From Terriglobia bacterium (lineage in GTDB: Bacteria; Acidobacteriota; Terriglobia; 20CM-2-55-15), in NCBI GenBank assembly GCA_963664115.2, contig CAXWPJ010000005.1, positions 32,001-96,000 of the forward strand: 64,000 nt of DNA, written 5' to 3'. A program made the position numbers and the translations under genes. The notes beneath the pieces were generated by a model that was not told the origin of the DNA, ran no database searches, and was given only the letters and a program-made list of their open reading frames with translations. Of this stretch, positions 7,652-27,578 are shown in pieces (position 1 is the stretch's first letter; each line of letters starts with the position of its first letter).

Positions 7652-7777
7652 TCAGGACTTGAGAATGGATTTCAGGGCACCGGCACCCGTTCCTTCAGTT
7701 CTTCAAACCAGTTAAGGACGATGTTGATTTGGGGAGAGGCCGCTAAGTCCGTTTGGCCTTCAGGTAACGCCACTAGA

Positions 7778-9489
7778 CCCTGAACAAGCGTGATTGACGA
7801 GGAAATGATAGTGCAATAAGAGCGGAAGTACCCGAAATGCCCCCTCTCCGTGCGAAAAAAACCTTGGACAGATTCTTCGGAAAAGGAGGCATTTCAGATG
7901 AACGATTATACGCGCAAGAACATGAGGAACCGCAAGCGGCGAATCGAACGTCGGCTTGGGGACCGGCATTGGACGGATCAGGTAGAGCCGATGTTTTCGG
8001 CGAGCAACATTCAGTACGAGATGGGAGAGCGGACGCGGGGCACATCGGTTGGTGGTATCGGGACGATGCAACTGGTGGCGCGGCGGACCGGGCTGATCGA
8101 AGCCATCGACAAGGGCGTGCATGTGTTGAAGCGGCACCTGCCGTATCACGAGTCGGATCACGTGCTGAACATCGCCTACAACGCCTTGAGCGGAGGAACG
8201 TGCCTGGAAGACATCGAACTGCGGCGCAACGATGCGGTGTATCTGGATGCGCTGGGAGCGCAACGGATTCCGGATCCGACGACGGCGGGAGACTTCTGCC
8301 GGAGATTCGAGGCCGACGACGTGGAGTGTCTGATGGAGGCAACCAATCAAGTCCGGCTCGGAGTCTGGCGACAGCAACCGGCGGCGTTTTTCGAAGAAGC
8401 GGTGTTGGACGCGGACGGGACACTGGCCGAAACCACGGGGGAATGCAAGCAAGGGATGGACGTGGCCTACGACGGGACGTGGGGATATCACCCGCTGATG
8501 ATCTCGCTGGCCAACACCGCCGAACCGCTGTATCTGGTCAATCGTAGCGGCAACCGGCCGTCGCATGAAGGAGCCGCGGTCCGGTTCTGATTGTGCCGGC
8601 ATGCTTCCTGCTGCGCGGGGACACGGACTTCAGCCAGACCCGGCTCTGGACGGATCCAGGTGGGTTTCATATTCGGGATTGACGCGATGGCGAACCTGAA
8701 GGCCCGGGCCGATGAACTGGAGCCGCGCCAGTGGAAGCGCCTGGAACGGCCCGCGAAATACGACGTGCGACGACAACGTGAAGGAAGAGATCGTTCGGCA
8801 GCGCGGTTTCGACAATATCCGCTTGCAGGATGTGGCCGAGTTTCGGTATTTCGGAGCCTGCGATCGGGACTACCGTGTCGTCGTGTGCGGAAGAATCTGT
8901 CGGTGGCCAAAGGAGAGCAGGTGTTGTTTGACGACATCCGGTACTTCTTCTACATTACCAACCGTTCGGATCCGGCCGACCAGATTGTGATGCGTGAACG
9001 GTGCAATCAGGAGCCAGTTGAAGAACGGCGTTCAGGCTTGCGGAGCCGGTGGACCAGCAACTGGGCCTCAGGTCACTTGGACACTGAAAGCGTGGTTTGC
9101 ATTGCTGCTTCCCGAAACCGGACGTTGGGGCAAAAATATCAGGCTGAGGCAAACCGTGCTGCGCGTTCAAAACCTTCTTGAACGTCATCTTGTGCCGTCA
9201 ACTCGTGCGCACCGGGCGGCGCATTCTGTTCCGGATCCTGGCCTGGAACCGGTGGTTGCCGGTCTTGTTCCGCGGGGTGGATGTGTTGGACGATGTTGAC
9301 CCGATCATGACTCTGAGCCCGGGCGATCGAGGTCCCGGTTTCTGTCAACCGTCCAACACCAGCGAGGCTGAACTGGCCAGATTCAACAGAAACTCGATAC
9401 CTGGAACAGGCCATCCGGGAACGGGATTCTATGCCTCGAATTCTATCGGCGCGAACTGGGCCTCGGCGGATCTGGGCGCTTGTTTTGGG
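7778..9489 (+). mobile_element. IS1380-family element with frameshifted transposase
   Basis: Ends CCCTGAACAAGCG / CGCTTGTTTTGGG, ACTAGA duplicated at 7772-7777 and 9490-9495; PDPTTAGDFCRRF, LDADGT, GYHPL motifs; many indels after 8580. Confidence 0.85.
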
Positions 9490-11361
9490 ACTAGAAATCG
9501 TTACATCGTAGTCTCGGTACGGACGAGAGGCGAGGAAACCCTGTATTGCAAGGGATCGCTCGGGTCCATTTTGAAATCCCTCTGTTGTTGCGACATCGAC
9601 CGCCGTTATCCCATTCATCAATTGATAGAACAGTTCAGTGCCGTCCGCTGACCACAGCGGTCCAAAAATGTTAACGGAGGCTTCCGTGACGCGATATGTC
9701 CGACCCGTTGGTGGGAAGGGCTGCACATAGACGTCACCGGCGGCACCAGCCTCATCGGAGCGGTAGGCAATCCAGTTTCCATCTGGTGAGAATGTAGCAC
9801 CCAACTGGGCGGTATCGGGGTCGTCATAAAAGAGTGTTGGCTCCGCTTCCGCCCCGCCATCGAGCGACAGCGTCCAGATACCACCATCTTGCACAAACAA
9901 AGGTGTGCGTCCTTGCGTAAAGATAAGAGTACGTCCATCAGGAGACCACCCAGTTGGAAGAAGGTAGGTGTCTTCTTCCGCTAAGAACAGCGCCTCTGCC
10001 ACGTCAGTCCCATCTGCGGACTGCCAATAAATGCCCTGCACCCCGTCTCTGTCGGACGTGAACGTCACGCGCTCACTATCAGGCGTCCAGAGAGGGAAAC
10101 CGTTGCTGCCTTCCGAAGTCTGGGTCAGCCGACGCATGGCCGTACTTCCAGATAGGTCATAGACAAAAATCGCACTCCCACCTTCACTCCTGGCTTCTAC
10201 AGCTAGGCGCGTGCCGTCAGGGGACAGACGTGGACCGACATAATCTTGCAGAGGTACGTCGAGGATTTCCTGAGTCCCGTCTCGGTTTACAAGAGCAAGA
10301 GCAACTCCTCCGCTCCCTGTATCGCCTGGAAGATAGGCGAGAGTGCCTGCTTCGGAAACAGCATACTGGGCGGTGTCGCTGCCAAGGTTCGTGGATCGCC
10401 GTGTGCCCTCGACGAGCGGCACGGCCCCGCCGGCGATTGTAAGTGTGTCAAGGTCGAACACGGAGGCGAACAGCGTGTTGCCCTGCGCGTACACGATGTG
10501 ACCCGTCGGCAGATACCGTGCTGCTCCGCCGCCGTCCCAGACCAGAGTGCGCTCGCTGCCACTGATTGACTGCACGACAATCTGGGCGGCGTCTCCAAAA
10601 GCGCCGACCGCGTTCGCAGGATCCTCGAGAGTTCGTGTAAACAGTACCTGCTCGCCACCGGGCAGAATCTGCGGACTGTCGAACATCTCATCCTCCCCTC
10701 TCGTCACGAGCACCTCAGGCGCCCCCCCATTCGCTGGAATGCGAAGAATGCCATCTTGGTGGGCAAACACCATCGTTTCAGGTGTGGGCCAGGACAGACC
10801 GATCTGGAAGCCCGACTCAAAAACCGTCACCGGCGTCCCTCCAGACACCGGCACTCGCTTCAGGAGACTCTCGGTGGGACTCAGCACGTGTATGTAGGCC
10901 AGCCACTCACCATCCGGGGAGAAGACCGGCGTCGCAGGGCCACCGTCGGGTTCATCTGTGCCAGGAACAGGTAGGGAGTCGGTTTGGTTGAAGTCTCGGA
11001 GATGCAGTTGGCCGTTCGCGACATACGCCATCCGCATCCCGTCCGGTGACAGCGCGACCATCGAGAGTTCCGGCCTCGAGAACTGCTGCCCTTCCGGTAA
11101 CAGAAACGGGAAGCGAGTGACGGAACCGGACTCGGGCAGTGGCACGGGCTTTAGGCTCCATGCCGCCAAACCGGTGACTGCTGCGACCAAAACGATCAAC
11201 GCGATCCACCGAAGTCTGGATTGTGGCGCTTGGACAACCTCAATAACGGGCTGCACGACTACTCCGGCGGGATCAGCCAAAACTTTTTGAACGTCCACTC
11301 GTGCGTCGGCAATGGCGTGGTATCGATTCTTCGCTTCTTTCTCCAAGCAGCGCTCCAACAA

Positions 11362-12300
11362 GAGTTATAACCGAATCTGGTGTTTGAGGGATTGAATAAG
11401 AGCGGCGTATCTGGTTGATTTGTTGTGACAAAACTTCAAAGCAACCATAGGAGATACGCCACTGTGAGCAAGAGTAACGTGAATGGACCGGAAGGTCGAG
11501 AAACGATTGAGGATCCAGTAACAGAACTACTACGAGTTGGGGCACAGCAACTGATCCAACGCGCAGTGGAAGCCGAATTGGCAGAGCTGCTATCCCAGCA
11601 CGGTGGCCGGCGAACTGAGACAGGAAACGCCGGGGTGGTACGCAACGGTTATCTGCCGGAACGCGAACTGCAGACGGGATTGGGTCCGGTAACAGTCCAA
11701 ATCCCGAAGGTCCGTGCCAAGACGGGCGAAGCTGTGACGTTCCGATCGGCCCTGGTACCACCGTACATTCGGAAGACGAAGTCGCTGGAAGCAGCGGTGC
11801 CGTGGTTGTATTTGAAAGGCGTTTCCAGCGGCGAGATGGGTGAGGCCCTAAAAGTTCTTGTCGGTCCCCAGGCGCAGGGTCTGTCGGCGAGCACGGTATC
11901 GCGGTTGAAACAGGTTTGGGGCGAACAGTACCGCCTCGGACGAGGAGCGTTTGGATGCAGATCGCTGGGTCATGTCTGGGCCGACGGCATCTACAGCGGA
12001 CTTCGGGCGGAACAAACCAAGTTGTGTGCATTGGTCGTGATCGGCATGAACGCGGAGAGAAGCGTTTCCGCCGAAGACGGTGTACGGGTCGACACTGGCG
12101 CGAGGTCTGAAGCGAAGTCCCATGTTCCGAAGTTGGCCACGATCAACGAAATCTATCCCGATCCAACCGAAGTCTGAACGATGCCTGTCGGTCCAGGCGA
12201 AGGCGAAACAGGCCCTGCACTCGATCTGGCAGGCCGAGACGAAGGCAGTTGGACAACCTCAATAACGGGCTGACACGGGCACGACTGATGTTCAAACTCC
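11362..12300 (+). mobile_element. IS256-family element, degraded or chimeric copy
   Basis: Identical to 49644 onward for about 580 bp, then progressive deletions; right boundary approximate. Confidence 0.8.
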
Positions 12301-13059
12301 GGCGGGATCAGCCAAAACTTTTTGAACGTCCACTCGTGCGTCGGCAATGGCGTGGTATCGATTCTTCGCTTCTTTCTCCAAGCAGCGCTCCAACAACTCG
12401 CCAATCCTTGGATGGAGGTTCGGAGGTAGAGCCGCAAACTCCGGCTGTCTCTCTAGCACCCGAGCCAAGGTGAGGGAAACGTCATCACCTGCAAAGACGG
12501 AATGTCCAGTCAACATCTCAAATAGGACACAACCGAAAGCCCACACATCCGTGCGGTTATCGACTTCTCGCCCTCGTGCTTGCTCCGGCGACATGTACGC
12601 TGCAGTACCCAGAATGATTCCTTCTTGCGTGGCCTGCATACTTAGGGTTGGTGATTTGGAAAGGTTTACATCGGAGTCTCCTGAAAATGCCTTGGCTAAA
12701 CCGAAGTCCAGCACCTTCACTTTGCCGTCGGGAGTCACCTTGATGTTGTCCGGTTTCAGGTCTCGGTGAATGACACCATTTTCGTGTGCTGCTTCGAGAG
12801 CTTCTGCAATTTGCAACGCGAGCTTCAGAGACTCTTCAACTGGAATCGCGCCCTGCTTGATGCGATCGCCCAGGGTGGGGCCTTCGACGAGTTCGAGCAC
12901 AAGGAACCCCGTACCCTCGTGTTCTTCCAGTCCGTAGATTGCTGCGATGTTGGGATGATTGAGAGACGCAAGTAGCTGTGCTTCTCTACGGAAACGAGCT
13001 ACGCGGTCGCCGTCCTGTGCAAATTCCTCGGGCAGCGTTTTGATAGCGACTTCACGACC

Positions 13060-14214
13060 TAGTGTACCCCGCTCGAAGTAATGTAACTAAAATAGCTTTC
13101 CAACGTCCAATAGAGAATGAGGAAAGCACCGACCATTGAATTGGATGACAAGCAGCGGATGGAGTTGGAGCGACTGAGTCGAAGCCGGAGTACATCGGTC
13201 CGGTTGGCGGAACGATCCCGAATTGTATTACTGGCCGCTGAAGGTCGGAACAATTATGAGATCGCCGCCCGCTTGGAGATCACGCGCCAGAAAGCGGGCC
13301 GCTGGCGCAATCGTTTTGTGGAACAGGGCTTGGCTGGGATCGAAAAGGATGCGCCGCGAAGCGGACGGATTCCCACGATCAGTCGCCGGAAGCGAGCCCG
13401 GATCGTCAAGAAGACACTGGAAGAGAAGCCCCCGAACGCGACGCACTGGAGTCGGGCCTCGATGGCGAAGGCCGTTGGCGTGAGCGAGTCCACGGTCGGG
13501 AAAATCTGGCGGGTCCATGGACTGAAGCCTCATCTGTCACGAACCTTCAAACTATCCAACGACAAACGATTCGCCGAAAAGCTGGAGGATGTGGTCGGTC
13601 TGTATCTGAGCCCACCGGAAAACGCCATTGTCTTGTCCTGCGATGAGAAGAGCCAGATGCAGGCCCTGGACCGCACGCAACCCGGGTTACCTCTGAAGAA
13701 GGGGCGGTGTGGCACCATGACCCACGATTACAAACGTAACGGGACAACCACGCTTTTCGCCGCGCTCAACATCCTGGACGGTTCGGTCATCGGAACCTGC
13801 ATGCCAAAGCATCGCCATCAGGAATGGATCCGGTTTCTGAATCAGATCAAACGCGCCATGCCGAAAGATAAGGAGATCCACATTATTTGCGACAACTATG
13901 CGACTCACAAACATCAGAAAGTCGTCAACTGGCTCAAGCGTAACAAGCGTTTTCATGTGCACTTCACGCCAACCAGTGCGTCGTGGCTCAACATGGTCGA
14001 GCGCTTTTTCCGGGATCTGTCCGAGCAACGACTCCGGCGTGGCGTTTTCCGCTCGGTCCCCGAGTTGATCCAGGCCGTGGAGGACTACCTCGCTCGTCAC
14101 AATGAAGACCCGAAACCCTTCATCTGGACTGCAACGGCTTCCGACATCCTTGCTAAAGTCCAGCGCGGCCGGCGAAATCTTGATAAGTTACAGTCTGTTT
14201 AACGGGGACCACTA
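13060..14214 (+). mobile_element. IS630-family element
   Basis: CTAG at both ends with imperfect IR (CTAGTGTACCCCG / CGGGGACCACTAG). Confidence 0.88.
13117..14202 (+). CDS. IS630 transposase
   Basis: HTH; CDEKSQMQAL, THDYKRNGTT, DNYATH, FTPTSASWLNMVERFF. Confidence 0.93.
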   Translation: MRKAPTIELDDKQRMELERLSRSRSTSVRLAERSRIVLLAAEGRNNYEIAARLEITRQKAGRWRNRFVEQGLAGIEKDAPRSGRIPTISRRKRARIVKKTLEEKPPNATHWSRASMAKAVGVSESTVGKIWRVHGLKPHLSRTFKLSNDKRFAEKLEDVVGLYLSPPENAIVLSCDEKSQMQALDRTQPGLPLKKGRCGTMTHDYKRNGTTTLFAALNILDGSVIGTCMPKHRHQEWIRFLNQIKRAMPKDKEIHIICDNYATHKHQKVVNWLKRNKRFHVHFTPTSASWLNMVERFFRDLSEQRLRRGVFRSVPELIQAVEDYLARHNEDPKPFIWTATASDILAKVQRGRRNLDKLQSV

Positions 14215-14262
14215 GGGCACCGGCACCCGCTCCTTCAGTTCTTCAAACCGATTCAGGACGTG
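14213..14262 (-). pseudogene. Kinase 3'-end stub
   Basis: Encodes HVLNRFEELKERVPVP*, same tail as 7672. Confidence 0.8.
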
Positions 14263-14267
14263 CTGTA

Positions 14268-15743
14268 CTACTCTCGCCTCAGAATAAAAAGACCGGCACC
14301 TACTCTATCGGACGCATAGAGCAGCCCTAGATGATCGATGGCCACGTCGTTGATCTGGATAACGGTCGGCTGGCCGGGTTGGATGGGGTGGGAGTTCTCA
14401 TTCGGGCTGGGAATGTAATAGCCGACTTCAATCATGTTGTAAGGATCCGAGACATCGACGACCCTTAACCCTGCATTGAAGTAGGGAACGTAAGCGATTT
14501 TATCGTCGAATCTGTTAAGCACTCCATTGATCGTCTCCGCAAATTGATGAGGTCCGAAACGACCTCCCTTCTCGCAGAAACCAGCATCCGGAACCTGCCA
14601 CGTATCCACCGGGTAGGGGACGCCCGTTTCGTCGGCATGCGTCATGTCGAACATGTAGATCTTCGTTCTGACGGGATCGGCACACCCTATATCCGGATTA
14701 GTGGCTTCATCCGCAACCAAGGCATACGCCCTCGGAAAGGAATCTCGCCCGAAGTTGGGGACGTCATCATAGAATATGGGTGCTACAGTGTGGGTTCCTC
14801 TTCCCGGTGGCTCGGTATCGATACGCCAAACCAGCTCAGGATTGGACGGATCCTCGATATCAAAGGAAACGACGTCTCCTCCACCCAAATAGGCTCCGTA
14901 GACCCTGTTGTTCTGTTCGTCCACGATGGGATGGTGCCAGTTGTTCCCATTTGAAGTCTCAGGTTCGCTCGTTCTTTGCCCCGGCAACCAAGCCCGCCCA
15001 ACGAAATCAGGGTTCGCGGGATCGGTGAGATCGAAAATCACTAGATGGTTTCCGTTGCGAAAACCCGGTTCGTTGGCTGCGCTGTAGTACAGGCCAGTCT
15101 CGGGCGACCACCAGCCTTTGTGCACGGACGCTAGCAATCCGCCGCACCCCTGCCCACAGGAATCTTCCGGTGTTCCCGTGATCTCTGCGACCAAGCGAAT
15201 CTGAGACGGATCCGTGTCTCTAGAAGTGATATCGAAGATCTGAAACTTCGCAAACCCCTCTCCCTGGGAATTTCGTATCAGGTAGTCTCTCCCCAGGGGA
15301 TTGGAATCGAAAGCGTAGTCATACACGACTGAAGTCGAGCGGGAGTTGGCGCTGAGAGTATTCGGTATGTGCCAGACCAATTCCGGATTGGCTGGATCGG
15401 AGACGTTCAGTATCGAAGTCCCGTTCCATTCCATTTGGCTGGTGATGGGGTTGAAGCGTTGGGTCTCGTCCCAGGCGTTCTCCGAATGCCCTACGTACAC
15501 CCACTCGCCGTTGGCTTCATCCCCTTTTGCCGTTACCTGGAGCGACTCACGGCCCTGTAAGTCATGGTGACCAACGAACTCGACGTTCTGGGCTTCAGCA
15601 ACATCCTGAGTCGCGGCGGCGTTGGTCAGGGTCGTCGACAGCACCATCAGCGGAAGCGCTGAGCAGACAGCGAAGGATAGTCTTATTATTGCCCGCCGTA
15701 TCAGTCGTTTCATTCCTGCAAGAGTGTTCTGCTTGGTCATCAC
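14268..15743 (-). CDS. Secreted LVIVD-repeat beta-propeller protein
   Basis: Signal peptide; ILNVSDPANP, IFDLTDPANP, LRVVDVSDP repeats; GGRFGPH. Confidence 0.85.
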   Translation of the reverse strand: MMTKQNTLAGMKRLIRRAIIRLSFAVCSALPLMVLSTTLTNAAATQDVAEAQNVEFVGHHDLQGRESLQVTAKGDEANGEWVYVGHSENAWDETQRFNPITSQMEWNGTSILNVSDPANPELVWHIPNTLSANSRSTSVVYDYAFDSNPLGRDYLIRNSQGEGFAKFQIFDITSRDTDPSQIRLVAEITGTPEDSCGQGCGGLLASVHKGWWSPETGLYYSAANEPGFRNGNHLVIFDLTDPANPDFVGRAWLPGQRTSEPETSNGNNWHHPIVDEQNNRVYGAYLGGGDVVSFDIEDPSNPELVWRIDTEPPGRGTHTVAPIFYDDVPNFGRDSFPRAYALVADEATNPDIGCADPVRTKIYMFDMTHADETGVPYPVDTWQVPDAGFCEKGGRFGPHQFAETINGVLNRFDDKIAYVPYFNAGLRVVDVSDPYNMIEVGYYIPSPNENSHPIQPGQPTVIQINDVAIDHLGLLYASDRVGAGLFILRRE

Positions 15744-15993
15744 CTACACCGTAACAAAGTTGGACGGAAGTGAGCCTCGAAAATCTTCGCAAATTCAACT
15801 ACAGGCATGATTGATAAGCAAGAAAGTTGTCAACTCGCTTTTCTTGGGTGATTCTCAACGTCCGAGAAGATGATTTATTGATGGTATGGACTCCTCTTTG
15901 ATGACTGAGTCGGCATCGAAGTGCCAAAGTCATTTTGAGCCTCGCAATAAAGCGGGCGAAACACGTGTACGTGTGAACAAAAAGGAGTCCGAG

Positions 15994-17028
15994 ATGAAGA
16001 ATAGAACGATAGCAGTGGATCTGGCAAAGAATGTTTTTCAAATTGGTGTTTCAGATCGCCCCGGGCATGTAGAGAAAACCTATCGTTTAAGTCGGGCAAA
16101 GTTTCTGGGGTTCTTTGCGAACCAGGAGCTGGCGACCGTGGTGATGGAAGCCTGCGGATCCGCCCATTACTGGGGTCGGAAGATCCGGGAACTGGGACAC
16201 ACGGTCGTTCTGATCTCGCCGCAGTATGTGACGCCCTACGTCAGGCGCAACAAGACCGACCGTACGGATGTGAAAGGATTGTTGGAAGCCTATCGTGACA
16301 GCGATATTCATCCAGTGCCGGTCAAAACCCTGGCCCAACAGCAACTGACCTCATTGCATCGAATCCGTTCGGCGTGGATGCGAACCCGAACCGCACGGAT
16401 CAATACGGTGCGGGGGTTGTTACGGGAGTTTGGCTACGTGATCCCGACCGGAGCGGATCATCTGGTGCCGGGGGTAATGGAGCTGATCGAAGATGCAGAT
16501 GTCGTCATCCCCAGTGTCGTTCGGGAGATGTTTCACCAGGTGTGTGGCGAGATCCGTGAATTGGAATCTCGCATGCGATCGGTGGAACAAGAGTTGAAGA
16601 CGCTGGCTCGGCAGATGCCTGAGGTCGCGCGTCTGACGTCGATTCCCGGCATCGGCCTGTTAACGGCAACGGCAATGGTGGGGTTTGTTGGAAACATCAA
16701 ACGATTCCGAACGTCCCGCCATTTTGCCAGTTATCTGGGACTCACACCCCGGGAACATTCCAGTGGCAACCAGCGACGCATGGGCCGGATCAGTAAGCAA
16801 GGCGATCGTTACCTCCGGATGCTGTTGGTTCATGGGGGCCGTTCCCTGTTGTGGAGTGCCCATCGAGAGGGCGCCACACCGACACCTCTCCAGCAATGGG
16901 GTCTCCAGAAACACGAGTTCCGCGGACACAACAAGGCAATCGTTGCACTGGCCAACAAGTTGGCGCGTCGCGTGTGGGCGGTTTGGAACCGTGACTGTGA
17001 CCATCAGGCCCGGTATCAGGCGGCCTGA
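15994..17028 (+). CDS. IS110/IS1111 DEDD recombinase
   Basis: IAVDLAKNVFQ, MEACG, NKTDRTD, SIPGIG, GLTPREHSSG, VALANKLAR. Confidence 0.93.
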   Translation: MKNRTIAVDLAKNVFQIGVSDRPGHVEKTYRLSRAKFLGFFANQELATVVMEACGSAHYWGRKIRELGHTVVLISPQYVTPYVRRNKTDRTDVKGLLEAYRDSDIHPVPVKTLAQQQLTSLHRIRSAWMRTRTARINTVRGLLREFGYVIPTGADHLVPGVMELIEDADVVIPSVVREMFHQVCGEIRELESRMRSVEQELKTLARQMPEVARLTSIPGIGLLTATAMVGFVGNIKRFRTSRHFASYLGLTPREHSSGNQRRMGRISKQGDRYLRMLLVHGGRSLLWSAHREGATPTPLQQWGLQKHEFRGHNKAIVALANKLARRVWAVWNRDCDHQARYQAA

Positions 17029-17039
17029 CCCGAAACAGT

Positions 17040-17300
17040 CGGAATATCTTTTCAGCGAGCTGCGATGAGGTTCGAGATGATGGCGTACCGGTCAGACCGG
17101 CGCGGGGCAACGCCGACAAGTCCTTTGGCCCTTAGAGGCCGTTATTTTATCGGTTGGCTCCCCGCGCGCAAATTTCCATCATGGCCTGGAACAATACAGT
17201 TCCACTTTTGAGGCCGAAGATACGGGTGCAGTCGACTAGCTACTCACCTCGTAACTTCTAGTCAGTCCTGCTGAATGCATTTTGCCGAAGAAAGCTGACG
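17040..17300 (+). ncRNA. Putative bridge/seek RNA of the IS1111 element
   Basis: Two GGCC-closed internal loops; one holds CAAGTCCT and TTTATCG (target matches), the other CCATCAT and AGATA (IS end matches); boundaries approximate. Confidence 0.7.
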
Positions 17301-17355
17301 GGAGAGCTGCGCCTACTTGACAGAGGAGTCCAGATACAGGACTTGACCTCGAAAA

Positions 17356-17415
17356 TCAGGGCACCGGCACCCGTTCCTTCAGTTCTTCAAACCAGTTCAG
17401 GACGATGTTGATTAC
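17356..17415 (-). pseudogene. Kinase 3'-end stub
   Basis: INIVLNWFEELKERVPVP*; stop lies 7 nt from site copy 3. Confidence 0.85.
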
Positions 17416-17637
17416 TGAAGGTTCAGCTCAAGCAGCGTTCCGCTCTGGTAGAAGGATCCCACCACGCCCAAGCAAGACTGTCCTCCTATGCCAATAAAGA
17501 GAATCAACGGTCGTCTAGCCGCATGCGGAAACAACAGTTCAGCCCTCGTCGTGGCACCCGCCCCGCCAGGGCGATCTTGAAGGACTGCTGTTCCTCCTGT
17601 ATCCAGATCCGCCCGCTGGTGGGAGAAACATCAATTC

Positions 17638-19701
17638 TCAGAAGATCTCCGGTACTGAAAACACCAGAATACCCTGATTGCGCATGTCGGAGACGATCAC
17701 TTCCTGATCTTCCGGGTTCAGAACCACTCCGAAAGGCTTCTTGAGCTGGGTTGTAGGGCCCACAGGGATTTTCCAAATCGGAGGAACATCCCCGTTATCA
17801 TCGTAACTCCAGACGCCTATAAACGCTTCCTCCGGTTCCATTTGATCTTGAATCCCTGGCATCGCGGCAATGATCAGCCTCCGCTGGGGATACATCTGCA
17901 TCTGGTTGATCCGGATAATTTCCGACTTCGGACCGCGGATAACAGCCCGTGGCGCTACGTTTCCTTCGTCCGTCCGGTTAAACACCAGGATTGCGCCTGT
18001 CTCCGAGTCACTTCTCCCTATGCTGGCCCTATAGGTTCCGAAGTTGCTCTGTGTTCCGACGACCAGAAGATCGTTGATCGGATCCACGGCAATCGCATGA
18101 AGTCTCCCCAACCTGGTGTCCGGGCCCTTGATCACTCGAATCGGTGCAACGTCACCGTTGGCTTCGCGCGGATAGACCTTAATACTGTCGTTGGTGTAGG
18201 TGAAAATCTCATCGTGAATGTTGTCCACGTCCAGCCGGTCGCTGATCGGCCCGGTTCTGGGGCCCTGGATAGTGCGAATGGGCGACTCCTGTCCATCGGC
18301 TCCTCCGGCGAACGTCAGTATGGCCTCTCCATAAGGGACAGGTACAACGATTTCATCGTTGACCGCGTCGTAGCGTATGTCATGCATGGTGCGGGACAGC
18401 CTGCTGGCCTGTCCATAGAGTGTTCGGACCGGTGTTTCTCCTCCGTCCGCCAACCTGGCGAACATCGCAATCTGCGGATGCGCCACTCAGTTGGGCACCA
18501 GGATCTGTCCCCGTCTGCTGTCGTAGCCAACGGCTCCGGGATTGCCGATCATGAGGCTCTCCGTCCCTACTGGCGCTCCTCGAATCGTTCTAATGGGTTC
18601 GACATCCCCATTGGCCGTCACCGGGAAAACCGTAACCGAGGGGGTTCCCATGCTCGCCACAAACAACTCGTCCAGTCGTTCATCCAGCGCAATACCAGGA
18701 GGATGTTGGATTCCGGTATTGGGTCCCGCGATGACGCGGATCGGAGCCACATCGCCTTCGGCCGAGGCGTCGAATATCAGTATGGAGCTGTCGGCATCAT
18801 TGGCCACAAACAGTTCCTGCCTTTCATTGTGCAGTGCCATGTGTGAAGGCCAATTCATTAACGTTCGAGGTCCTTCGATAGTCCGAAGAGGTGCCGTATT
18901 TCCTGAAGCGTTCAGGGGATACACGGTGATTGATGGCAGCTCAAAGCTGCCATAGGTTTCACCGGTCTCCGGATTCAGGTTTTGAGCATTGCCGAAATTG
19001 CTCACGTACATGAGATTGTTTGTCGTGTCCAGGGCAATCCCGTGCGGATCTTCCAGTTGCGTATCCGGTCCTTCGAGAGTCCGAAGTGGTTGTTCTTCAC
19101 CTTCGGCCTGCTTGCGGAACACATGCACGTAACCGCTCTGATTCACGACGAACAACTCCTGCCGTACTTCGTCCGCGGCAACGGAGAATCCACGAATGCT
19201 TGCCAGGAACCGATCCGGCGCGACGTTGCCCCGGGCGTCTGTCGAAAAAACCGGCAACCAACGCTGCGTATCATTGTTGAGCACATAGATGTCCAGGGTC
19301 ACCGGGTCAATGTAGACCCCACACATCATTTCGGCTTTTGTGTTGGTTCCCGAAATGACACGTCGGGGTTCTGTGAAACGGGCTTGAGGCGGCGTATCTT
19401 CGCGACTGTCATACTCCAGGATCTGAAACAAATTCTCGTCCGTGACCACCAGCATGTTGTTTTCGGAATTGACGGCCACGGCGCTAAACGCCGGATTCGG
19501 ATCTCGGATGAAACGCAGCGGAGGTCGCTCAATCACCACCGGCGTCCTGTCCTCCTGGCCCTGCACCGCCGTCACGGCCGCAGACGCAACCCCGGCAACG
19601 TCGCCGCTATCGATTAGAACGGCTTGAGCCATCCAGACGATCAATCCCGCTAAGACGAGCTGAAGTCGCCAACCTTTCCCGTCGCGAAAAGTTTTAGCCA
19701 T
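17638..19701 (-). CDS. Secreted NHL/YVTN-like beta-propeller protein with in-frame TGA at 18487-18489 (404 aa + 282 aa halves, 687 aa if read through)
   Basis: Repeats such as PHGIALD...ITVYP...GNTAPLRTIEGP; ...QILVPN*VAHPQIAMF in one frame. Confidence 0.8.
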
Positions 19702-19859
19702 TGCTCAACCTCCAATGGGAGAACCCTTATGTACTTGAATATTGGCGCGATTATCAGAGGACCGATAATCAAAGTCAAGCGTATGGGCGAATGTGAAGAC
19801 TTTTGGCAACAAAGCAGGTGTGGGTATGTGACGATTCCAACGCTTGAGCAAGGGGGCTG

Positions 19860-19983
19860 GCAGGGTCTTGATCGCCACTTTACGCCCGAGCTTCGTGTCA
19901 CGAGCACGCCACACTTCTCCCATACCACCTTTGCCGAGGAGTGTGCCGATCTCGTAGTGGCCCAGTTTGGTGCCAGATTCCAT
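19860..19983 (-). pseudogene. Kinase 5'-end stub
   Basis: [42 protein letters not shown], then unrelated sequence. Confidence 0.88.
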
Positions 19984-20010
19984 CGTTATAGTGTGTCGCT
20001 GAAATACAGT

Positions 20011-20097
20011 GAAAAACTCTGCAAAGGATACTAAGGCAGGAAGTTAGGCGCTATTAAATTCTCAAGTCCTGAGAAACGACATTCTCGGACCTTGAGA
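20011..20097 (-). repeat. Left 87-bp inverted repeat including 38-bp site copy 4 (20060-20097)
   Basis: 86/87 identical to the reverse complement of 21232-21318; site TCTCAAGTCCTGAGAAACGACATTCTCGGACCTTGAGA. Confidence 0.95.
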
Positions 20098-20188
20098 CTT
20101 TGATTGGCAGCTCGACACAGCACGGCCGTATATAAGGCTCTCTAACTCTCTTAAGAATGTGTGGCTTCGCCTATTTTCCGGTGAATGG

Positions 20189-21139
20189 CTATGCGCCTTC
20201 CAGACCCAACCGATCATTTACTGCATGACGCAGTTTCTGTTTGCAGCCCAGGTAGCGTTCCGTCGTCAACACTGAGGAATGACCCAGCAGGAACTGAATC
20301 TGCTCAATCTCGCCCCCGGCCTGGTAGCACAACCGAGCGCAGGTCCGACGCAGATCGTGTGGGGCAAGTTGGCTGATCTCCGATCGCTTTGCAACTTGCT
20401 TGATAATTCGCCAGACGACTTTTCCAGACAGACCGTCACCCCAGACACCTCCATAACGGTTCACTCTGCGAAAAATTCTTCCAGCACTAATTCCGGCCGA
20501 CCGTGTCCAGTTGTCCAATGCAGCTTTGACCCAGTCCGGCATTGGCACGGTTCTAACGCGTCGACCTTTGCCGATAAGATCCGCAATGATCCAGTGGTCT
20601 TCCCGGACCTGCAAATTCTCGACTCGCAGATCTACCAACTCAGATCGTCTTAAACCACATCCGAGGAGTACGGCAACGATCGCGCGATCTCGAAGGCCCC
20701 GGAGGTCGTCAGACTTGAAGCCAGTTAATAAGGTCCGCCCTTGCTCGGCCGTGAGCCAGTTGCCTATGATTCGTCCCTTTGATTTTGCTCCCTTGACATG
20801 CTGGATTCCCGCTGCCAACTCGGGACTCAGGAGTCCGCAATCCGAAGCCTCATGCGCCAAACGGCGAACAGCAGCCAGGTGCACATTGATGGTCGAAGCG
20901 GCGAGGTTTCTTTCCTTCAGATAGGTTTTGTATCGTCGAACAACAGTCCGGTTGAAAGCAAGGCGGGGCTCTGAACAATACCATCGTATGAATTCGTCAA
21001 TTGCTCGTCGATATGATCTTTGTGAACTTTCTGACGCCAGTGAAGCCAAGACCGCGGCCCTGGATTGTTCAAGGTCTGGCAGCTTGAGGGTCGTCTTCAT
21101 CCGTGACTTTTTCCGCTTCTTATCCGTTTCTCTTTTCAT
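20189..21139 (-). CDS. Tyrosine recombinase/integrase
   Basis: SAM-like N-terminus (WYCSEPRLAFNRTVV); catalytic GLRRSE, K in GKG, HDLRR, LGH, TERY. Confidence 0.93.
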   Translation of the reverse strand: MKRETDKKRKKSRMKTTLKLPDLEQSRAAVLASLASESSQRSYRRAIDEFIRWYCSEPRLAFNRTVVRRYKTYLKERNLAASTINVHLAAVRRLAHEASDCGLLSPELAAGIQHVKGAKSKGRIIGNWLTAEQGRTLLTGFKSDDLRGLRDRAIVAVLLGCGLRRSELVDLRVENLQVREDHWIIADLIGKGRRVRTVPMPDWVKAALDNWTRSAGISAGRIFRRVNRYGGVWGDGLSGKVVWRIIKQVAKRSEISQLAPHDLRRTCARLCYQAGGEIEQIQFLLGHSSVLTTERYLGCKQKLRHAVNDRLGLEGA

Positions 21140-21231
21140 AGTCGTGCCTCCATTTCAAATTGAACAAGGGAGGCAGATTTTCTGGAAAACAAGGCAAAAC
21201 ACTGAAATAGAGGGCTTGTCACGCCGGCGAT

Positions 21232-21318
21232 TCTCAAGGTCCGAGAATGTCGTTTCTCAGGACTTGAGAATTTAATAGCGCCTAAGTTCCTGCCTTAGTA
21301 TCCTTTGCAGAGTTTTTC
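21232..21318 (+). repeat. Right 87-bp inverted repeat including 38-bp site copy 5 (21232-21269)
   Basis: Site is the exact reverse complement of 20060-20097. Confidence 0.95.
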
Positions 21319-21346
21319 GCAGCTTTTTCAGCGACACACTTTAAAC

Positions 21347-21556
21347 ATGGAATCTGGCACCAAACTCGGTCATTACGAGATCTCAACGCTTTTAGGTAAG
21401 GGTGGAATGGGTGAAGTGTGGCGTGCTCGTGATACCAAGCTCGGGCGCGAAGTTGCGATCAAGACTCTTCCTGCAGAGTTTGCGAAGGATTCAGATCGAC
21501 TCGCCCGGTTTGAACGTGAAGCCAAGCTGCGGATCAGCGGTATAAGCAGTGTCTGA
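21347..21556 (+). pseudogene. Kinase 5'-end stub
   Basis: [61 protein letters not shown], then stop. Confidence 0.88.
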
Positions 21557-21842
21557 CGACTATGGCAGCGCTGTCAGTGTCGTCGTATGGGTGTTATGTC
21601 AATCCGGGTTCAGCGCTTGTACTGCCAGCGCCATGGCATGCCATTGGCTCAGGGTTACCGGTTGCCGCCAGGATGGCAGCGCTACGACCGGACCAAATTT
21701 CAAATATCTTTGCTTAGGTTAGTGGCGAGAGGGGCTAGAAGCCGATGTGTAAGGGGAATAATGAGATCGCCACCCCAGCGATGGGTGCGAACTCATGCCC
21801 CCCTTGATCATTTGGCAGTCAGGCGGGACCGGCCGAAAACTC

Positions 21843-24008
21843 CTAGAACAGCTCCGGCACGTGGAAACTCAACACTGCGTTCTGCTTCATGTCGGACACT
21901 ATGACCGTCTGGTTCTTCGGGTCCAGCGCCATGCCAAAGGGCTTAACGAGTACCTCACCGGGTCCGGCAAAAGTCCAGCGCGGTTCAATGTTGCCATCGT
22001 CTTCGTGGATGTCCCAGACGCCCACATGTGGCGCCTTGTCGTCCGGTCCTCGGATGGCCGCAAAAATCAAACCGCGCGGTGGGAAAACACGAAGCGCTCT
22101 GAGACCTGACAGCTCCGCCTTCGCCCCCCGGATGGACCTGAGGGGCTGCGCATTGCCTTCGGCAGTACGCTCAAAGATGAATATGCCGCGGTTGCCCCCA
22201 GTGACCAGCAGATCGTTGAGGGTATCGACCGCAACCTGCCCCTGGGCTCCCTCCAGAATACGGATCGGCGCCACATTGCCATTCGCCTCCCGCGGGAAGA
22301 CCAGGATTCTACCTGAGTCGGGAACCAGGATTTCGTTGTTAACCGGATCGACCACCATCTTGTCGGGCCGACGCAGCTGAGTCCGGCTGCCTTGAATCAC
22401 TCGCAGTGGAGGCTCTGCTCCATCGGCTCCGCCCCGAAACGTCATGATCGCCTGGGCAAACTGTTGCGGCACCACAACCTCGTCGTTCACCTCATCGTAT
22501 TCGATGCCGTGCATCGTTCGGCCCAGTAGTGTCGACTGTCCTTCGATTCTGCGCATCGGGGCAGCTGCTCCATCCGCCAACCTGGCGAAAGCCGCAATTT
22601 GCGGGTGGGCCACTCAGTTGGGCACTAGAATAGCCTCCCTCTTCGTGTCGTACGCCAGAGCTCCCGGATTGCCGATCATCAAGGCCCTTTGTCCCGCCGG
22701 GGCGCTGCGGATCATGCGAAGGGGGGGAGTGTCACCTTCGGCCCCCAGCTCGAAAACGGTCAGCGAATTATTACCGTAGTTGGCCACCCAGAGCTCTTCG
22801 TTCTTGATGTCCAGAAACAAGCCGACGGGGCTGTCCAGCATCGTTTGTGGCCCCTTCAACACTCGAATTGGCGCCACATCGCCATCCGCGTCGGACGTGA
22901 ACACCAGGATTGATTGCCCGGTGTCGTTGGCAACATACAACTCGCCGCGACGCTCATCCACACCGATACCAGAGGGCCAGTTCAACTGTGTCTTCGGTCC
23001 TACGATGACTCGCACTGGCGGCGCATCGCCGCTGGCGGAGCGCTCGTGGACTGTGATGGCCGGGGGCAAAAATCTCCCCGACCCGGGTACCGCCATGTTG
23101 CGTCCTAACGGTCGAGTCGGCTCCAGGTCATTCGCATCGGCTCCTTCAGCCGATCTGCTGGACACGTGCCCGTGGTTCGTTACATAGATCAGGTCATGCC
23201 CTTTATCGACGGCGATCCCGTGAGGGTTGGCCAGGCGGGTTCGGTCACCTTGCAGCAACCGGATCGGCGGCTCATCCCCTGACGCGAGCTTGCGGAACAC
23301 CACAACTGCGCTGTTGTGCTGGCTGGTCAGGAAGAGCTCCTGATTCTCATCATCCACGGCGATTCCACGCCCTCTGGTCGAATAACCCGTGTTCAGTTGG
23401 CGCGCAGGCGGCACATTCCCTTCCTGATCGCGGGAGAAAACCAGCATTTTAGCGGCGGTATCGGCATGGGTGGCGTAAATGTCTCCCGAGAGCGGATCGA
23501 CATACAGACCGCACACGAACTCAATCTCCGTTTGGTCTCCACCCAAGATCCGCTTTGGTTCAGTCAACGCCGCATTGGGCGGCGTATTCGCCGTTCGGTC
23601 ATACACCAGGATCTGGTGCAGGTTTTCGTCGGCCGCCACCACCTCGTTGCGGTCCGCGTCCACGGAGACGCCGCTAAAGCTGGGACTCGAATCTCGGATA
23701 ACCCGTACGGGATCCCTTCTGAGCCGCACCGTCCGAGATGGTTCCTGCAATGGGAACGCTCGGGCGCCCCCAACTCCCGACATGAGGAGTCCAGCCTGCC
23801 TCTGACCCGCTGCGGCAGCCGAAGCGGTGCTAGCGCTGCCCACCCGCCCTTCCGAAAGCGGTTGATAGCCGTTGAGCCCGGCCTCGTTGCCGGGCTGCCC
23901 CTTCTCTGGGTCCAACGCCGACGAAAGTAGGACCAGGGACAGGCTGACCATCGTGATACCGAGCACCGTCCGTATCAAGGTGCGGTTCGTTTTCGGTGTC
24001 TCAAACAT
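21843..24008 (-). CDS. Paralogous NHL/YVTN-like beta-propeller protein with in-frame TGA at 22614-22616 (464 aa + 256 aa, 721 aa if read through)
   Basis: ...AILVPN*VAHPQIAAF; same repeat type as 17638-19701. Confidence 0.8.
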
Positions 24009-24146
24009 GTCTGATTCTCCGTGAATTCATATCCGACCAATTCCTACCGGATCATCCTTGTTGGCCTCGTGCGCCGTAACATAGGCTTCCAGCCTGTGAA
24101 TTCCAAACTTCGGGACGCAGCACTCAACGGTATTATACATTGCCAG

Positions 24147-24938
24147 GGCATTGTCAGGTTATGTCCCCAGCGTGCAGACTGACGGGATGAAGACGCGACG
24201 ATCCCGCTACATCAGGCACCGATTTCCTCCAGAGATTATCAGCCATGCTGTCTGGCTCTACTACCGATTCAGTCTGAGTTTCCGGAATGTCGAGGATCTG
24301 CTCGCTGAGCGCGGCGTGAACGTGACCTACGAATCGATCCGCCAGTGGTCCGTCAAGTTCGGAGCTCAGTATGCGCGTCGATTGAAACGACGCCAGGGGC
24401 GTCTCGGTGACACATGGCACCTGGACGAGGTCTTCGTCACGATTAACGGTGAAAGGCAATATCTCTGGCGTGCCGTGGATCAAGACGGTGATGTGATCGA
24501 TATTTTTGTTACAGCCCCGTCGGGATGGGCGTGCGGCGCGGAGATTCTTTCGGAAGCTGTTAAAGCATCAGGGAAAGGAACCATTCCGTCTCGTGACCGA
24601 CAAGCTGGGCAGCTACCGTGTCGCACATCGCGAACTCACGCCCCTGATCACCCATGATTCCCGCCAATATGCGAACAATTGGGCCGAGGTGTCACACCAG
24701 CCAACGCGACAACGCGAGCGACAAATGCGATGCTTCAAGTCGCCGGATCAGGCTCAGCGCTTCTTGCACGTTCACGGAGTCGTTCAGAATCTCTTTAGAC
24801 TGGCACGACACCGACTCAGGTCGGCTCACTATCGAATGTTGCGCACACGATCCTTCTCGACGTGGGCAGCCGTAACCACAGCGTGAGGTTTGCCTTCCCG
24901 GTCTTTTTCTGCCTTGCGCCAGCTAATTTCACAGTACC
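24147..24938 (+). mobile_element. IS6-family element, transposase frameshifted near 24508
   Basis: RHRFPPEIISHAVWLYYRFSLSFR, WHLDEVFV, TDKLGSY, NNWAEVSHQP; IR GGCATTGTCAGGTTA / TAATTTCACAGTACC. Confidence 0.85.
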
Positions 24939-24953
24939 CCCACGAGGGGGAGG

Positions 24954-26012
24954 CTACTGTGACGATTCCAGGAACCAACCCAGCTGTGCCTCGGCGCACT
25001 CACCGACGACGGTCAGATGACGCTGGACGGCTTCTGAGTCAACGAAGGGGTGCGGTTCGCCCGGGTTCCGAAATCGGAGACCGTTGACCTTGGCCAAGGT
25101 ATTGTCATGGTTCGTATGACTGGCCAGAAAGACATCAACGCGGGCCCTTAGTGCGATGTCTCGAAAACGCCGCGCCGAGGCGCTATAGATTGCTAGGCCC
25201 TCTGAACGCTCCGGCCAGTACCGGACCCCCATGGAATTACCTCCCCAGATGCTTCCCAAATGCCAGCGGTCTCCATCCTTGAGTGGAATCAAGGTCGATA
25301 TCGTCCCCGGGGTGTGACCAGGCGTGATATAGAGCGTTACGGTGGTATCACCCAGCGTCAGTTCCATCCCGTCCGTGGCCACCATGTCTTTCCTGGGCTT
25401 CAACTCTGGCGGACTGTTGTCGTTGGCTACGAGATTCCAATCGGCCTCAGACATGATGATGCGCGCTCCGTACCTGTCCTGGAGCGTCTTAGCTCCGTAA
25501 TAGTGGTCGGAATGGCCGTGGGCAATAATGACGTACTTGATGTCGGCCGCATCAAGCCCCATCTGTCGCAGTCCGTCGACGATTTCGTCCTCGACCATAT
25601 AGTCGTAGGCCGTATCGTGGAGAATAATTCCTTCCGAAGTCGTCACCGCCCACATCGCTAGGCCTTGGATGTACGATCCGTCAGCAAGAGTCATCTCATT
25701 GCTACCGATGTAATAAAGGTTGTCGAATATTTTATGTGGCGGTTCGTACCATAGTTCGCGCGGTGGAATCGTTCGGGGGGGCCGCGCAGCCGTCGGCGCC
25801 GCAGGCGGCCGAGCGGACGCATTGATGACGTTTCTAGAGAACTCTCCGCAATTCCTGTCGAATATCCAGGTGAAATCATTTCCAGGTGAGTATGCCGCAG
25901 CCTTGGCTGCGGCCTCATGACTTTCCGGTGTACCGGTCTGCGCGTTCGATTCAGTCGAAATCCAACCGCCTGCAAGCAGGATCGAGAGCACGGACGGCAA
26001 GTAGCGCTTCAT
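24954..26012 (-). CDS. Secreted metallo-beta-lactamase-fold hydrolase (subclass B3-like)
   Basis: Signal peptide; KIFDNLYYIG, HGHSDH, TPGHTPG, LASH. Confidence 0.85.
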   Translation of the reverse strand: MKRYLPSVLSILLAGGWISTESNAQTGTPESHEAAAKAAAYSPGNDFTWIFDRNCGEFSRNVINASARPPAAPTAARPPRTIPPRELWYEPPHKIFDNLYYIGSNEMTLADGSYIQGLAMWAVTTSEGIILHDTAYDYMVEDEIVDGLRQMGLDAADIKYVIIAHGHSDHYYGAKTLQDRYGARIIMSEADWNLVANDNSPPELKPRKDMVATDGMELTLGDTTVTLYITPGHTPGTISTLIPLKDGDRWHLGSIWGGNSMGVRYWPERSEGLAIYSASARRFRDIALRARVDVFLASHTNHDNTLAKVNGLRFRNPGEPHPFVDSEAVQRHLTVVGECAEAQLGWFLESSQ

Positions 26013-26302
26013 GGATTCTCCCCCGTGTTAAGTCAGGATCAATGACGGATGTCGCAAGACTACCAGATACCCAATGGACGACAAAGCCAATCGTTTTCCG
26101 GCCCCTCAGGGAGAGCTTTGTCCAACTTGACATCGTCGTGACGGGTTGAGGCTCTTGGGTTGGCTGCTTTTCTCATCATGAGAGATCCAGCCTACCGGGT
26201 CTGGCGTCGCGATGAGTACTTCGAAGGTTCTGAACCAGAGGAACCAGTCCCTTGGGACCGGTTCACGCTGCGTGCACGAGGCGATGGGCGTCCGACCTCA
26301 AT

Positions 26303-26340
26303 TCCCAAGTCCCGATAAATCATCTTCTCGGACGTTGAGA
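26303..26340. repeat. 38-bp site copy 6
   Basis: TCCCAAGTCCCGATAAATCATCTTCTCGGACGTTGAGA. Confidence 0.9.
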
Positions 26341-26479
26341 ATTGGCGAGCAGAATTCCCCCGGAAAAATTCAGAAGCCGAACGACCCAGGGGTCGCCGGA
26401 GTCCCAAGCGATGGGCCCCCACTTTGAAGTCAAGCCACTCGCATGCCGTGCTTTGCTTTTCGGCACGCAAACTGCAACC

Positions 26480-26608
26480 TCAGTCAGCCTGCACTTTGCC
26501 TGGTACAATTTCGGTCGAATTCACCAGACATTGAGGGTCAAGCCCGCGATGGAAGTGGATATCACGGACCACATATGGACGTGGGAGGAAATCCTGGGAG
26601 ATAGATAA
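26480..26608 (+). pseudogene. C-terminal remnant of an IS1-like transposase
   Basis: SLHFAWYNFGRIHQTLRVKPAMEVDITDHIWTWEEIL. Confidence 0.6.
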
Positions 26609-26668
26609 CCGCCGCTTGATTAGGAATTACCCAACCGGATCGGTTCTGGCCCAGCTTTGGGCCAGCGT

Positions 26669-26869
26669 CTATGGCGTTGGAGGTATAAAAGTGACGCCAT
26701 TTCTTTCAATAAATATTTTCGGAGTCAATGGCGCACCATCCGAACAGTCTGCCCCAGAACTAACAATCACACCTTCACCCACGGTAATCAGAATGCACAC
26801 GGGCATTGAAGGGGCAATCCGCTCCTCCAGATCCTCTATCCGTACATCCAACTCGATGAATTCATCCAT
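26669..26869 (-). CDS. 66-aa peptide with LEERIAP leader-like motif
   Basis: AAGGAG RBS; MDEFIELDVRIEDLEERIAP followed by a two-Cys core. Confidence 0.6.
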   Translation of the reverse strand: MDEFIELDVRIEDLEERIAPSMPVCILITVGEGVIVSSGADCSDGAPLTPKIFIERNGVTFIPPTP

Positions 26870-26981
26870 GATCTGCTCCTTGGCGGGAACCCTATCATGG
26901 AGCCATCCAGACGGCTAGGTTTTCGGAAGAGAGTGTCCTAAGTGTCCCCGAACATCCCAGCATTTCCTCCGAATCTTCCCG

Positions 26982-27019
26982 GGTCAAGTCCTGATAAATC
27001 ATCTTCGCGGAAGTTGAGA
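26982..27019. repeat. 38-bp site copy 7
   Basis: GGTCAAGTCCTGATAAATCATCTTCGCGGAAGTTGAGA. Confidence 0.9.
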
Positions 27020-27108
27020 ATTAGTTTTGTTAGCAGATGTAGGTTACTGTCGATTTCTAAACAGATGCAATTAGTCGCCCGCGTTTACACGCGAGCAAGG
27101 AGATCATC

Positions 27109-27396
27109 ATGGCAGTCGGAGTTCAGCTTGATTTCGAGGGCGCAACAATAGAACAATACGACCAGATCTTAGAAAAGATGGGCTTAACCCACCGAGGACC
27201 GGGCGGACCGGGTAGTTTGTTCCATTGGGTGACGAAGACGGAGAACGGCCTGCGTGCCACCGATGTTTGGGAGTCCCGTGAGGTTTTCGAGAAGTTCGCA
27301 GAAGAGAAGATTGGACCGATCTCCCAAGCGGTGGGGGTTCCCGCTGCACCTGTGATCCAGTTCTTCGAGGTTTACAACTACCTCACCGCGGGCTGA
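27109..27396 (+). CDS. Small ABM/Dabb-like protein
   Basis: AAGGAG RBS; EQYDQI...LFHW...TDVWESREVFEKF. Confidence 0.7.
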   Translation: MAVGVQLDFEGATIEQYDQILEKMGLTHRGPGGPGSLFHWVTKTENGLRATDVWESREVFEKFAEEKIGPISQAVGVPAAPVIQFFEVYNYLTAG

Positions 27397-27507
27397 GCTG
27401 AAAATGGGATTGGGGGTCGTTACCCGGAGGCTTTAGCCGGGACCCAGATGCGCCAATGTGGTCGGGTGAGCGACTCGTCGCGGGAGTCGCTCTGGACCAG
27501 AACCGGC

Positions 27508-27578
27508 TGGCCCAGCCGCAGATCAACATCGTCCTCAACTGGTTTGAAGAACTGAAGGAACGGGTGCCGGTGCCGTGA
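27508..27578 (+). pseudogene. Kinase 3'-end stub
   Basis: PQINIVLNWFEELKERVPVP*. Confidence 0.85.

Follow-up and report, generated by a model that had tools for sequence, protein, structure and literature searches.

The closest described counterpart of the system reported here is the dif module of Acinetobacter. In the part of its description considered here, such modules are bounded by pdif sites, involve XerC/XerD and are called unique to Acinetobacter (PMC13141974). Here we analyze a stretch of 64,000 nucleotides (nt; hereafter the window) from contig CAXWPJ010000005.1 of a Terriglobia bacterium, in which two-armed sites of a comparable build flank gene modules and a tyrosine recombinase gene (P0001). 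The first and last codons of a Ser/Thr kinase-PD40 gene (heads and tails) lie beside such sites, often without the rest of the gene. Our results suggest that these kinase ends are probably scars on the modules of a site-specific cassette system, to which unrelated DNA was joined one end at a time. Among the matches listed in the literature searched, which extended to few subscription journals, none describes the site family or the kinase stubs.

Recombination-type sites in the genome of the window

We called sites with an iterated profile over the 4.9-Mb genome of the window (G000; contigs up to 1.3 Mb), with a shuffled genome as control. A total of 179 sites were identified, against none after shuffling. 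Each consists of two arms, A and B, which are about 14 bp long and separated by a 6-bp spacer, a 14-6-14 architecture of tyrosine-recombinase type. Two classes can be distinguished: 151 R sites, whose spacer is mostly ATCATC, and 28 L sites, mostly with ACGACA or ACGACC; ATCATC is conserved in 137 of the 179 sites. The sites are grouped in 40 clusters, neighbouring R sites are co-oriented in 105 of 112 cases, and the replichore bias of R sites is weak (90 versus 61). A strict R pattern searched in 31 genomes was matched 113 times in G000, 71 times in G002, 30 in G003, 7 in G001 and once each in G007 and G017, with no match in the remaining 25, and the records that carry it are titled Terriglobia. 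G004 has a site variant with the spacer ATCCGG, and a third variant with a GTCGCC-like centre occurs in G004 and G007.

Two known kinds of site were rejected as identities. The sites are not the host dif, which has one canonical copy elsewhere in G000, at a GC-skew switch, and is single-copy in 9 of the 31 genomes searched, including all site-bearing ones. Nor are they single-strand hairpins of the attC type: their arms show no covariation (complementarity of 0.42 at the variable pair, for an expectation of 0.41), folding is weaker than -4 kcal/mol in 24% of R sites, and the site centre is fixed. The lack of covariation favours double-stranded binding arms over an attC-like hairpin.

The sites are also insertion hot spots. 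The IS110-family element of the window was seen 10 times at one site junction. A second element of that family occupies another junction in 7 cases, group II introns sit at a third, and a further element enters both R-type and third-variant sites (e.g. L411:64-1254). IS91-like elements that carry a tyrosine recombinase of their own are often found no more than a few hundred bases away from R sites (in G000 at C1:92926, C2:196541, C12:36180, C12:487077 and C12:570167).

Kinase ends lie beside the sites

G000 contains 145 kinase tails and 70 heads, with none of either in the shuffled genome. A full, degenerate or half site starts within about 60 nt of 102 tails (77 full, 7 degenerate and 18 half sites), compared with 28 of 3,000 random positions, and one further tail is accompanied by the third variant. 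The spacing is 9 nt for 71 tails and 19 nt for 11, so that the fixed tail-to-site distance which a preliminary description had read from the window alone recurs across the genome; the outcome that would have refuted that description, a lack of such sites at most paralogues and orphan tails, was not observed. L sites are associated with heads: 20 of the 28 have a head within 300 nt, 13 of them at 79 nt, and a scored site lies within 200 nt of 40 of the 70 heads. The second species examined (G002, 17 loci) agrees, with a site within 60 nt of 37 of 64 tails and 27 at the same 9-nt spacing. The earlier figure of 7 nt between stop codon and site is equivalent if the site is counted from 2 nt before its TCAAG; the two sites said to survive beside these gaps, however, are half-sites, and their missing halves lie at 5621-5648 and 15851-15878.

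To follow copy number along the kinase gene, we used 36-nt profiles of similar information. Inward from the start codon, over the first 82 codons, heads fall through 71, 61, 48, 38, 31, 24, 17 and 14 copies; inward from the stop, tails fall through 140, 119 and 90, and the informative interior windows have 13-20. Head stubs measure 29-586 nt and nearly every junction is different. The end of a multi-copy element meets 3 of 55 head junctions and 2 of 129 tail junctions, and deletion driven by insertion sequences (IS) was rejected as the chief source of the stubs.

A kinase body is absent from 90 cargo-bearing R-to-R segments. Both stubs are present in 9 of these, only a tail in 32, only a head in 7 and neither in 42; heads and tails do not co-occur above chance (Fisher p=0.41), and the earlier proposal that cargo replaced the interior is not supported in the form of one two-ended event. 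The longest open reading frame (ORF) runs along the kinase direction in 48 segments and against it in 29.

We then compared codon positions in 43 non-redundant orphan tails adjoining an R site. Third positions depart from the majority at 85 of 344 (24.7%) and first and second positions at 23 of 688 (3.3%), as called with a profile that favours conserved positions, although its threshold of 18 bits, against typical scores of 60-75, tolerates many changes. Invariant positions of the neighbouring sites differ at 26 of 1,161 (2.2%) in the same set. Among the changed codons, 77 are synonymous and 24 non-synonymous. Since non-coding remnants could not attain such coding-type variation, the sequences suggest that the orphan tails derive from many functional kinase paralogues, through cuts that were recent and took place repeatedly.

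Three further features of kinase genes and stubs were observed. In L165 (G017) and in L116 and L140 (G013), kinase-PD40 genes stand head-to-tail with overlapping or nearly overlapping stop and start and no site between, a possible ancestral state. An insert of about 130 nt occupies one position within the kinase tail in several copies (G000 C6:31827, C2:744680, C2:764511, C12:562362 and others) and recurs in both G004 and G017. The window further has, at 21530-21606, a dispersed element (about 77-110 nt) with a sharp left end and 31 BLAST matches in the genome; it follows at least five head stubs of differing lengths and includes a stretch resembling the XerD-side arm of the host dif.

Modules exchange neighbours within and between species

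An intact module with the order L site, leader, kinase/PD40 gene, tail and R site lies at C5:155673-158508. The existence of such copies bears out the suggestion that the ancestral mobile unit was site-kinase-site. The same kinase gene (93.8% over 2,721 nt) is also found between two R sites behind a different leader. Segments between neighbouring sites comprise 16 L-R modules, 12 short R-L linkers and 79 R-R segments in G000, and 39 L-R, 16 R-L and 13 R-R segments in other Acidobacteria. Direct head-to-tail fusions occur at C2:744318 and C12:502368.

Site-bounded segments exchange neighbours within and between species. R-to-R segments (e.g. of 389, 714, 867 and 1,289 nt) reappear with other neighbours. 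Across G000, G001, G002 and G003, 22 site pairs, looked for only within one spacer class and some of them redundant, match at 95% or more in one flank but not in the other, and several of them bridge species. When 31 loci of G001, G002 and G004 were aligned to the G000 genome, 37 of 183 ends of low-copy alignments fell at sites against 4.5 expected, an excess somewhat overstated because alignments tend to end at shared repeats.

A candidate recombinase for the sites

P0001 is a tyrosine recombinase of 316 aa (PF00589) with the catalytic R-K-H-R-H-Y residues and an integrase domain. It scores below the XerC, XerD and IntI cut-offs (TIGR02249, 60.8 bits versus 265), and among solved structures an archaeal XerC-like protein (4a8e) is nearest to it in sequence. 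The family is large, with 7,993 of 8,000 scored candidates at E<=1e-40. Recombinases and transposases of other types gave three hits for serine recombinases, two for Y1 and eleven for Y2/IS91-type transposases. L sites with the conserved 79-nt leader flank the recombinase gene, and a consensus scan found no promoter in the L-site leaders. De novo motif searches near the gene returned only the ribosome-binding region and neighbouring genes.

A second site profile, seeded from motifs in the flanks of P0001 homologs, has the same 14-6-14 build, with the spacer classes CAGGC[GC] and ATC[GC]C[CG]. In the 55 genome loci on which it was trained, it found 130 sites at 34 loci and one in shuffles. In 80 metagenome loci, which form an independent set, it found 144 sites at 57 loci and none in shuffles, at recurring offsets, and the idea that the recombinase family is tied to a site family is thereby upheld; the contrary view, that enzyme and sites are unlinked, was rejected once these lineage-specific variants emerged. 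Arrays at the homolog loci extend outward from the recombinase gene as L-gene-R modules linked by short R-L linkers. An inverted L pair surrounds the gene, as in the window, at 12 of 48 and 6 of 37 evaluable loci. The site variant described by the second profile is nearly restricted to a single clade in a tree of 37 proteins. Kinase genes are only occasional neighbours in other lineages (7 of 125 loci), so the kinase stubs belong to the lineage of the window and not to the system as such.

These comparisons of sequence make P0001 the likely cognate enzyme of the sites. Several results count against it. The site profile of the window's lineage found no site at any of the 55 homolog loci, so that the link rests on shared architecture and not on shared sequence, and even the second profile left 21 of the 55 genome loci and 23 of the 80 metagenome loci without a site. 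The family was not found in G002 (71 sites), G003 (30 sites), G004 or G013, and the G001 copy is broken. G000 has a single recombinase copy for its 40 site clusters, and of 72 long loci selected through an L site, just one has the recombinase within about 1.5 kb; five genomes from such loci have 12-71 pattern matches and 1-4 recombinase hits each. Site clusters far from the enzyme would fit orphan arrays like the CALINs of integrons, and would fit another enzyme as well.

Such an enzyme could be the host XerC/XerD pair, with P0001 a frequent passenger, a rather unlikely alternative that concerns the enzyme only and is compatible with scars. Besides the site-bearing genomes that lack P0001, it can draw on the 6-bp spacer, which is bordered by AA/TT as in dif, and on the B arm, whose likeness by eye to the XerC-side arm of the host dif extends over 8 of 11 positions. 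Against it, the host has its own dif, a single copy apart from the sites, whose XerD-side arm the sites lack, and the recurring offsets from P0001 relatives and the variant that tracks one family clade connect the sites with the P0001 family.

Public contigs (4 of 23 runs) give a hint that the recombinase segment is present in only part of some populations: the depth of segment 20061-21260 is about one quarter of that of its neighbours in X1 and X4 and roughly the same as theirs in X2 and X5, although contig depth is not copy number and joints at the sites are indistinguishable from other copies of the repeat.

Origin of the kinase stubs

The smooth fall-off of stub length, the differing junctions, the chance-level pairing of heads and tails and the third-position variation all point the same way, and the stubs are best read as scars and not as cis-acting DNA. 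One-end-at-a-time joining near the sites would explain short, young and independent stubs better than random erosion does.

Passive erosion would need no special capture step: after insertion of kinase modules into arrays, ordinary deletions would have fused neighbouring modules and trimmed kinase genes towards sites kept by selection. The predominance of R-R, fusion-type segments over L-R modules in G000 accords with this, as do the independent occurrence of heads and tails, a genome full of broken genes and IS elements, and the fact that other site-flanking sequences likewise recur in families. However, random deletion in a 2.7-kb gene would scatter remnants along its length, yet most stubs are shorter than 200 nt. 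They also look young, with first- and second-position change close to that in the site itself, and IS ends account for only 5 of 184 junctions. We consider erosion unlikely.

That the tail is itself functional DNA, either a homology arm for RecA-type exchange or an accessory element aiding recombination at the neighbouring site, is quite improbable: the last 13 conserved codons of 17 intact kinases from close genomes do show a synonymous excess of 0.42 (maximum 0.31 in 323 other windows), site-less tails do carry 6 breakpoints (5 distinct) versus 0.9 expected, and tails accompany different site variants in G004 and G007, but the excess is unexceptional within G007, G013 and G017, where 8.8% of windows attain it, and is not seen in distant genomes, third positions of orphan tails vary freely, 79 of 151 R sites have no tail, the 55 homolog loci of other lineages have no window-type tails or heads, and heads show no breakpoint excess (2 versus 1.4 expected). 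The proposal that kinase ends double as sequence-specific cis-acting DNA is thus not sustained, and the synonymous conservation looked for in the tail is confined to close relatives. A secondary role of the tail as a homology arm is possible.

The scar reading has its own difficulties. No scored site accompanies 42 of the 145 tails. Three genomes with no more than one R site each (0-1 in G007, G013 and G017) likewise have orphan tails, and the third site variant often comes after them. The lengths of tails concentrate near 40 and 57-66 nt, in part owing to a small element that inserts in the tail and to the loss of similarity among paralogues further up. No donor of cargo was found, and polymorphisms inside the sites do not place the crossover within the site.

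Layout of the window

The features of the window are given in Table 1. All four tails of the preliminary description are present, ending at 7672, 14212 (given there as 14213) and 17356 on the minus strand and at 27578 on the plus strand, as are both head stubs; the tail at 14212 reads NRFEELKERVPVP and then the stop. The tail at 7672 had been taken as attached to a kinase, and it does rejoin one, but only once an inserted element of about 1.75 kb is removed. The kinase-PD40 gene that owns it is disrupted by three insertions and has lost its head to the IS630 deletion; the R site, leader and head expected near this element would have disappeared through the adjacent deletion. For the unit 17337-20097, the order of site, head, cargo, tail and site stands, whereas the cargo consists of two ORFs and not of one propeller gene, and the sites are of different classes facing each other (L with ACGACA, R with ATCATC). 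Shuffling of kinase-PD40 domains driven by the recombinase, also proposed, was not demonstrated.

Table 1 Features of the window discussed in the text
Feature	Position	Strand	Matches
Spacer and outer (B) arm of R site, severed from other half by group II intron	5621..5648	-	
Group II intron inside R site; RT/maturase ORF 5847-7196	5649..7651	-	RVT_1, GIIM, RF02003
Inner (A) arm half of intron-split R site	7652..7664	-	
Kinase-PD40 gene tail (3' end), separated from gene body by inserted element	7672..7776	-	
Broken kinase-PD40 gene: PD40 part, IS256-like insertion ~11362-12250, kinase domain; head lost at IS630 end	9500..13065	-	
IS630-family element	13066..14211	+	
Orphan kinase tail, 49 nt, after LVIVD cargo gene	14212..14260	-	
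Cargo gene, LVIVD-repeat protein	14268..15743	-	
R site interrupted by IS110: spacer and B arm	15851..15878	-	
IS110-family element inside R site; identical junction 10 times in genome	15879..17336	+	
A-arm half of IS110-split R site	17337..17348	-	
Orphan kinase tail, 58 nt	17356..17413	-	
Two-ORF cargo: NHL/lactonase-like propeller of 404 aa; ORF of 282 aa with no Pfam match	17638..19701	-	
Kinase head stub, 42 codons	19856..19983	-	
L site, spacer ACGACA, B arm towards recombinase	20062..20100	+	
Tyrosine recombinase P0001, 316 aa, catalytic residues present	20189..21139	-	
Second L site, inverted relative to first, B arm towards recombinase	21229..21267	-	
Kinase head stub, 184 nt (about 61 codons), 79 nt from L site	21347..21530	+	
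R site without tail	26305..26343	+	
R site without tail	26984..27022	+	
Orphan kinase tail, 63 nt; IS starts at 27600 where site would follow	27516..27578	+	

Two degenerate sites were also seen, at 507-544 and 5570-5607; the latter and the R site at 5621 are about 15 nt apart, as is usual in R-L linkers. Related two-gene propeller modules flank the recombinase at 17638-19701 and 21843-24008, both on the minus strand. Elsewhere, the window has an exact 183-nt tandem duplication (1289-1654) and a type IV pilus/type II secretion cluster (41204-63934) with several prepilin-like genes and a second IS256-like copy. An Rfam scan of the window returned nothing besides the group II intron and one tRNA.

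A model for the making of modules

We propose a model in which a new module would arise when unrelated DNA is joined to a point a few tens to hundreds of bases inside either site. Illegitimate repair might produce these joins, in the simplest case once a cut at the site has been aborted. A recombinase of the P0001 family would swap modules between sites that have a spacer in common, R with R and L with L: recombination between such sites would excise or insert R-to-R or L-to-L units, and L-R modules would be swapped through two crossovers. These exchange steps follow the rules of tyrosine recombinases and the precedent of pdif, as far as the description in PMC13141974 covers it. The kinase would contribute nothing beyond being the commonest module of this lineage.

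It is tempting to speculate further that Acidobacteria own a chromosomal cassette system with one dedicated recombinase and two non-interchangeable sites, in which cuts at the sites and short-range illegitimate joining capture genes, and that the more than 100 stubs are datable records of capture; we put this forward tentatively, as a possibility that is well short of even.

The record of kinase scars is the new part of the finding. A scar was likely left whenever unrelated DNA replaced part of a kinase cassette, which makes the stubs a rare record of cassette making. How promoterless genes become bounded mobile cassettes is not known to have been explained for integrons or dif modules, since donor and scar can seldom be seen. 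With a known founder gene at every junction, breakpoints in the present system can be mapped and dated in bulk. If true, site-driven capture would make the genesis of cassettes, open for integrons and dif modules, directly testable. Within roughly one third of the genome collection, 125 stretches show the site architecture, and 78 of the 80 titles listed are Acidobacteriota. It is thus common in an abundant and poorly cultured phylum and may organise much of its accessory DNA. A system of one enzyme and two spacers would also be a natural tool for cassette exchange.

Comparison with known systems

Ds elements and Pack-MULEs are internally deleted, cargo-bearing, non-autonomous derivatives of transposons that keep their ends and have lost their interior at variable points. 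The modules described here resemble them in these features, with foreign DNA between the ends. In contrast, the ends here are sites of tyrosine-recombinase type that are exchanged at the site, and the two stubs are acquired independently. No target-site duplication outside the ends was noticed in the flanks viewed, where no dedicated count was made.

As far as the integron literature considered here extends (PMC8618304, PMC3001079), the system shares with integron arrays and CALINs its co-oriented arrays, units of one or two genes, stop codons often near the site, arrays distant from the enzyme gene, and sites interrupted by group II introns and IS110-family elements. The system is not an integron, however. 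P0001 is not IntI (61 bits against the cut-off of 265), and the sites, unlike attC, are 34-39 bp long with a fixed spacer and no arm covariation. A separate IntI-like integrase of the genome, L413 (G000 C9:714593-715873), lies 196 kb from the nearest site.

Common to the present system and to dif modules, in the portion of the pdif description considered (PMC13141974), are asymmetric two-arm sites with a 6-bp spacer, modules between inverted sites that have one arm type inside and alternate with those of the opposite type, direct sites that bound fused modules, the shuffling of modules as wholes, and IS families that target the sites. Compared with pdif as described there, the arms here are at least 14 bp and lack the XerD-side arm of the host, and each lineage has only two main spacer classes. 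The arrays lie in chromosome-sized contigs (up to 1.3 Mb) and not in Rep_3/OrfX plasmids, a dedicated recombinase gene stands between two inverted L sites, and many modules retain stubs of one founder gene. The arms of XerC/XerD and the plasmid context thus set the dif modules apart from the present system, which nonetheless works as they do.

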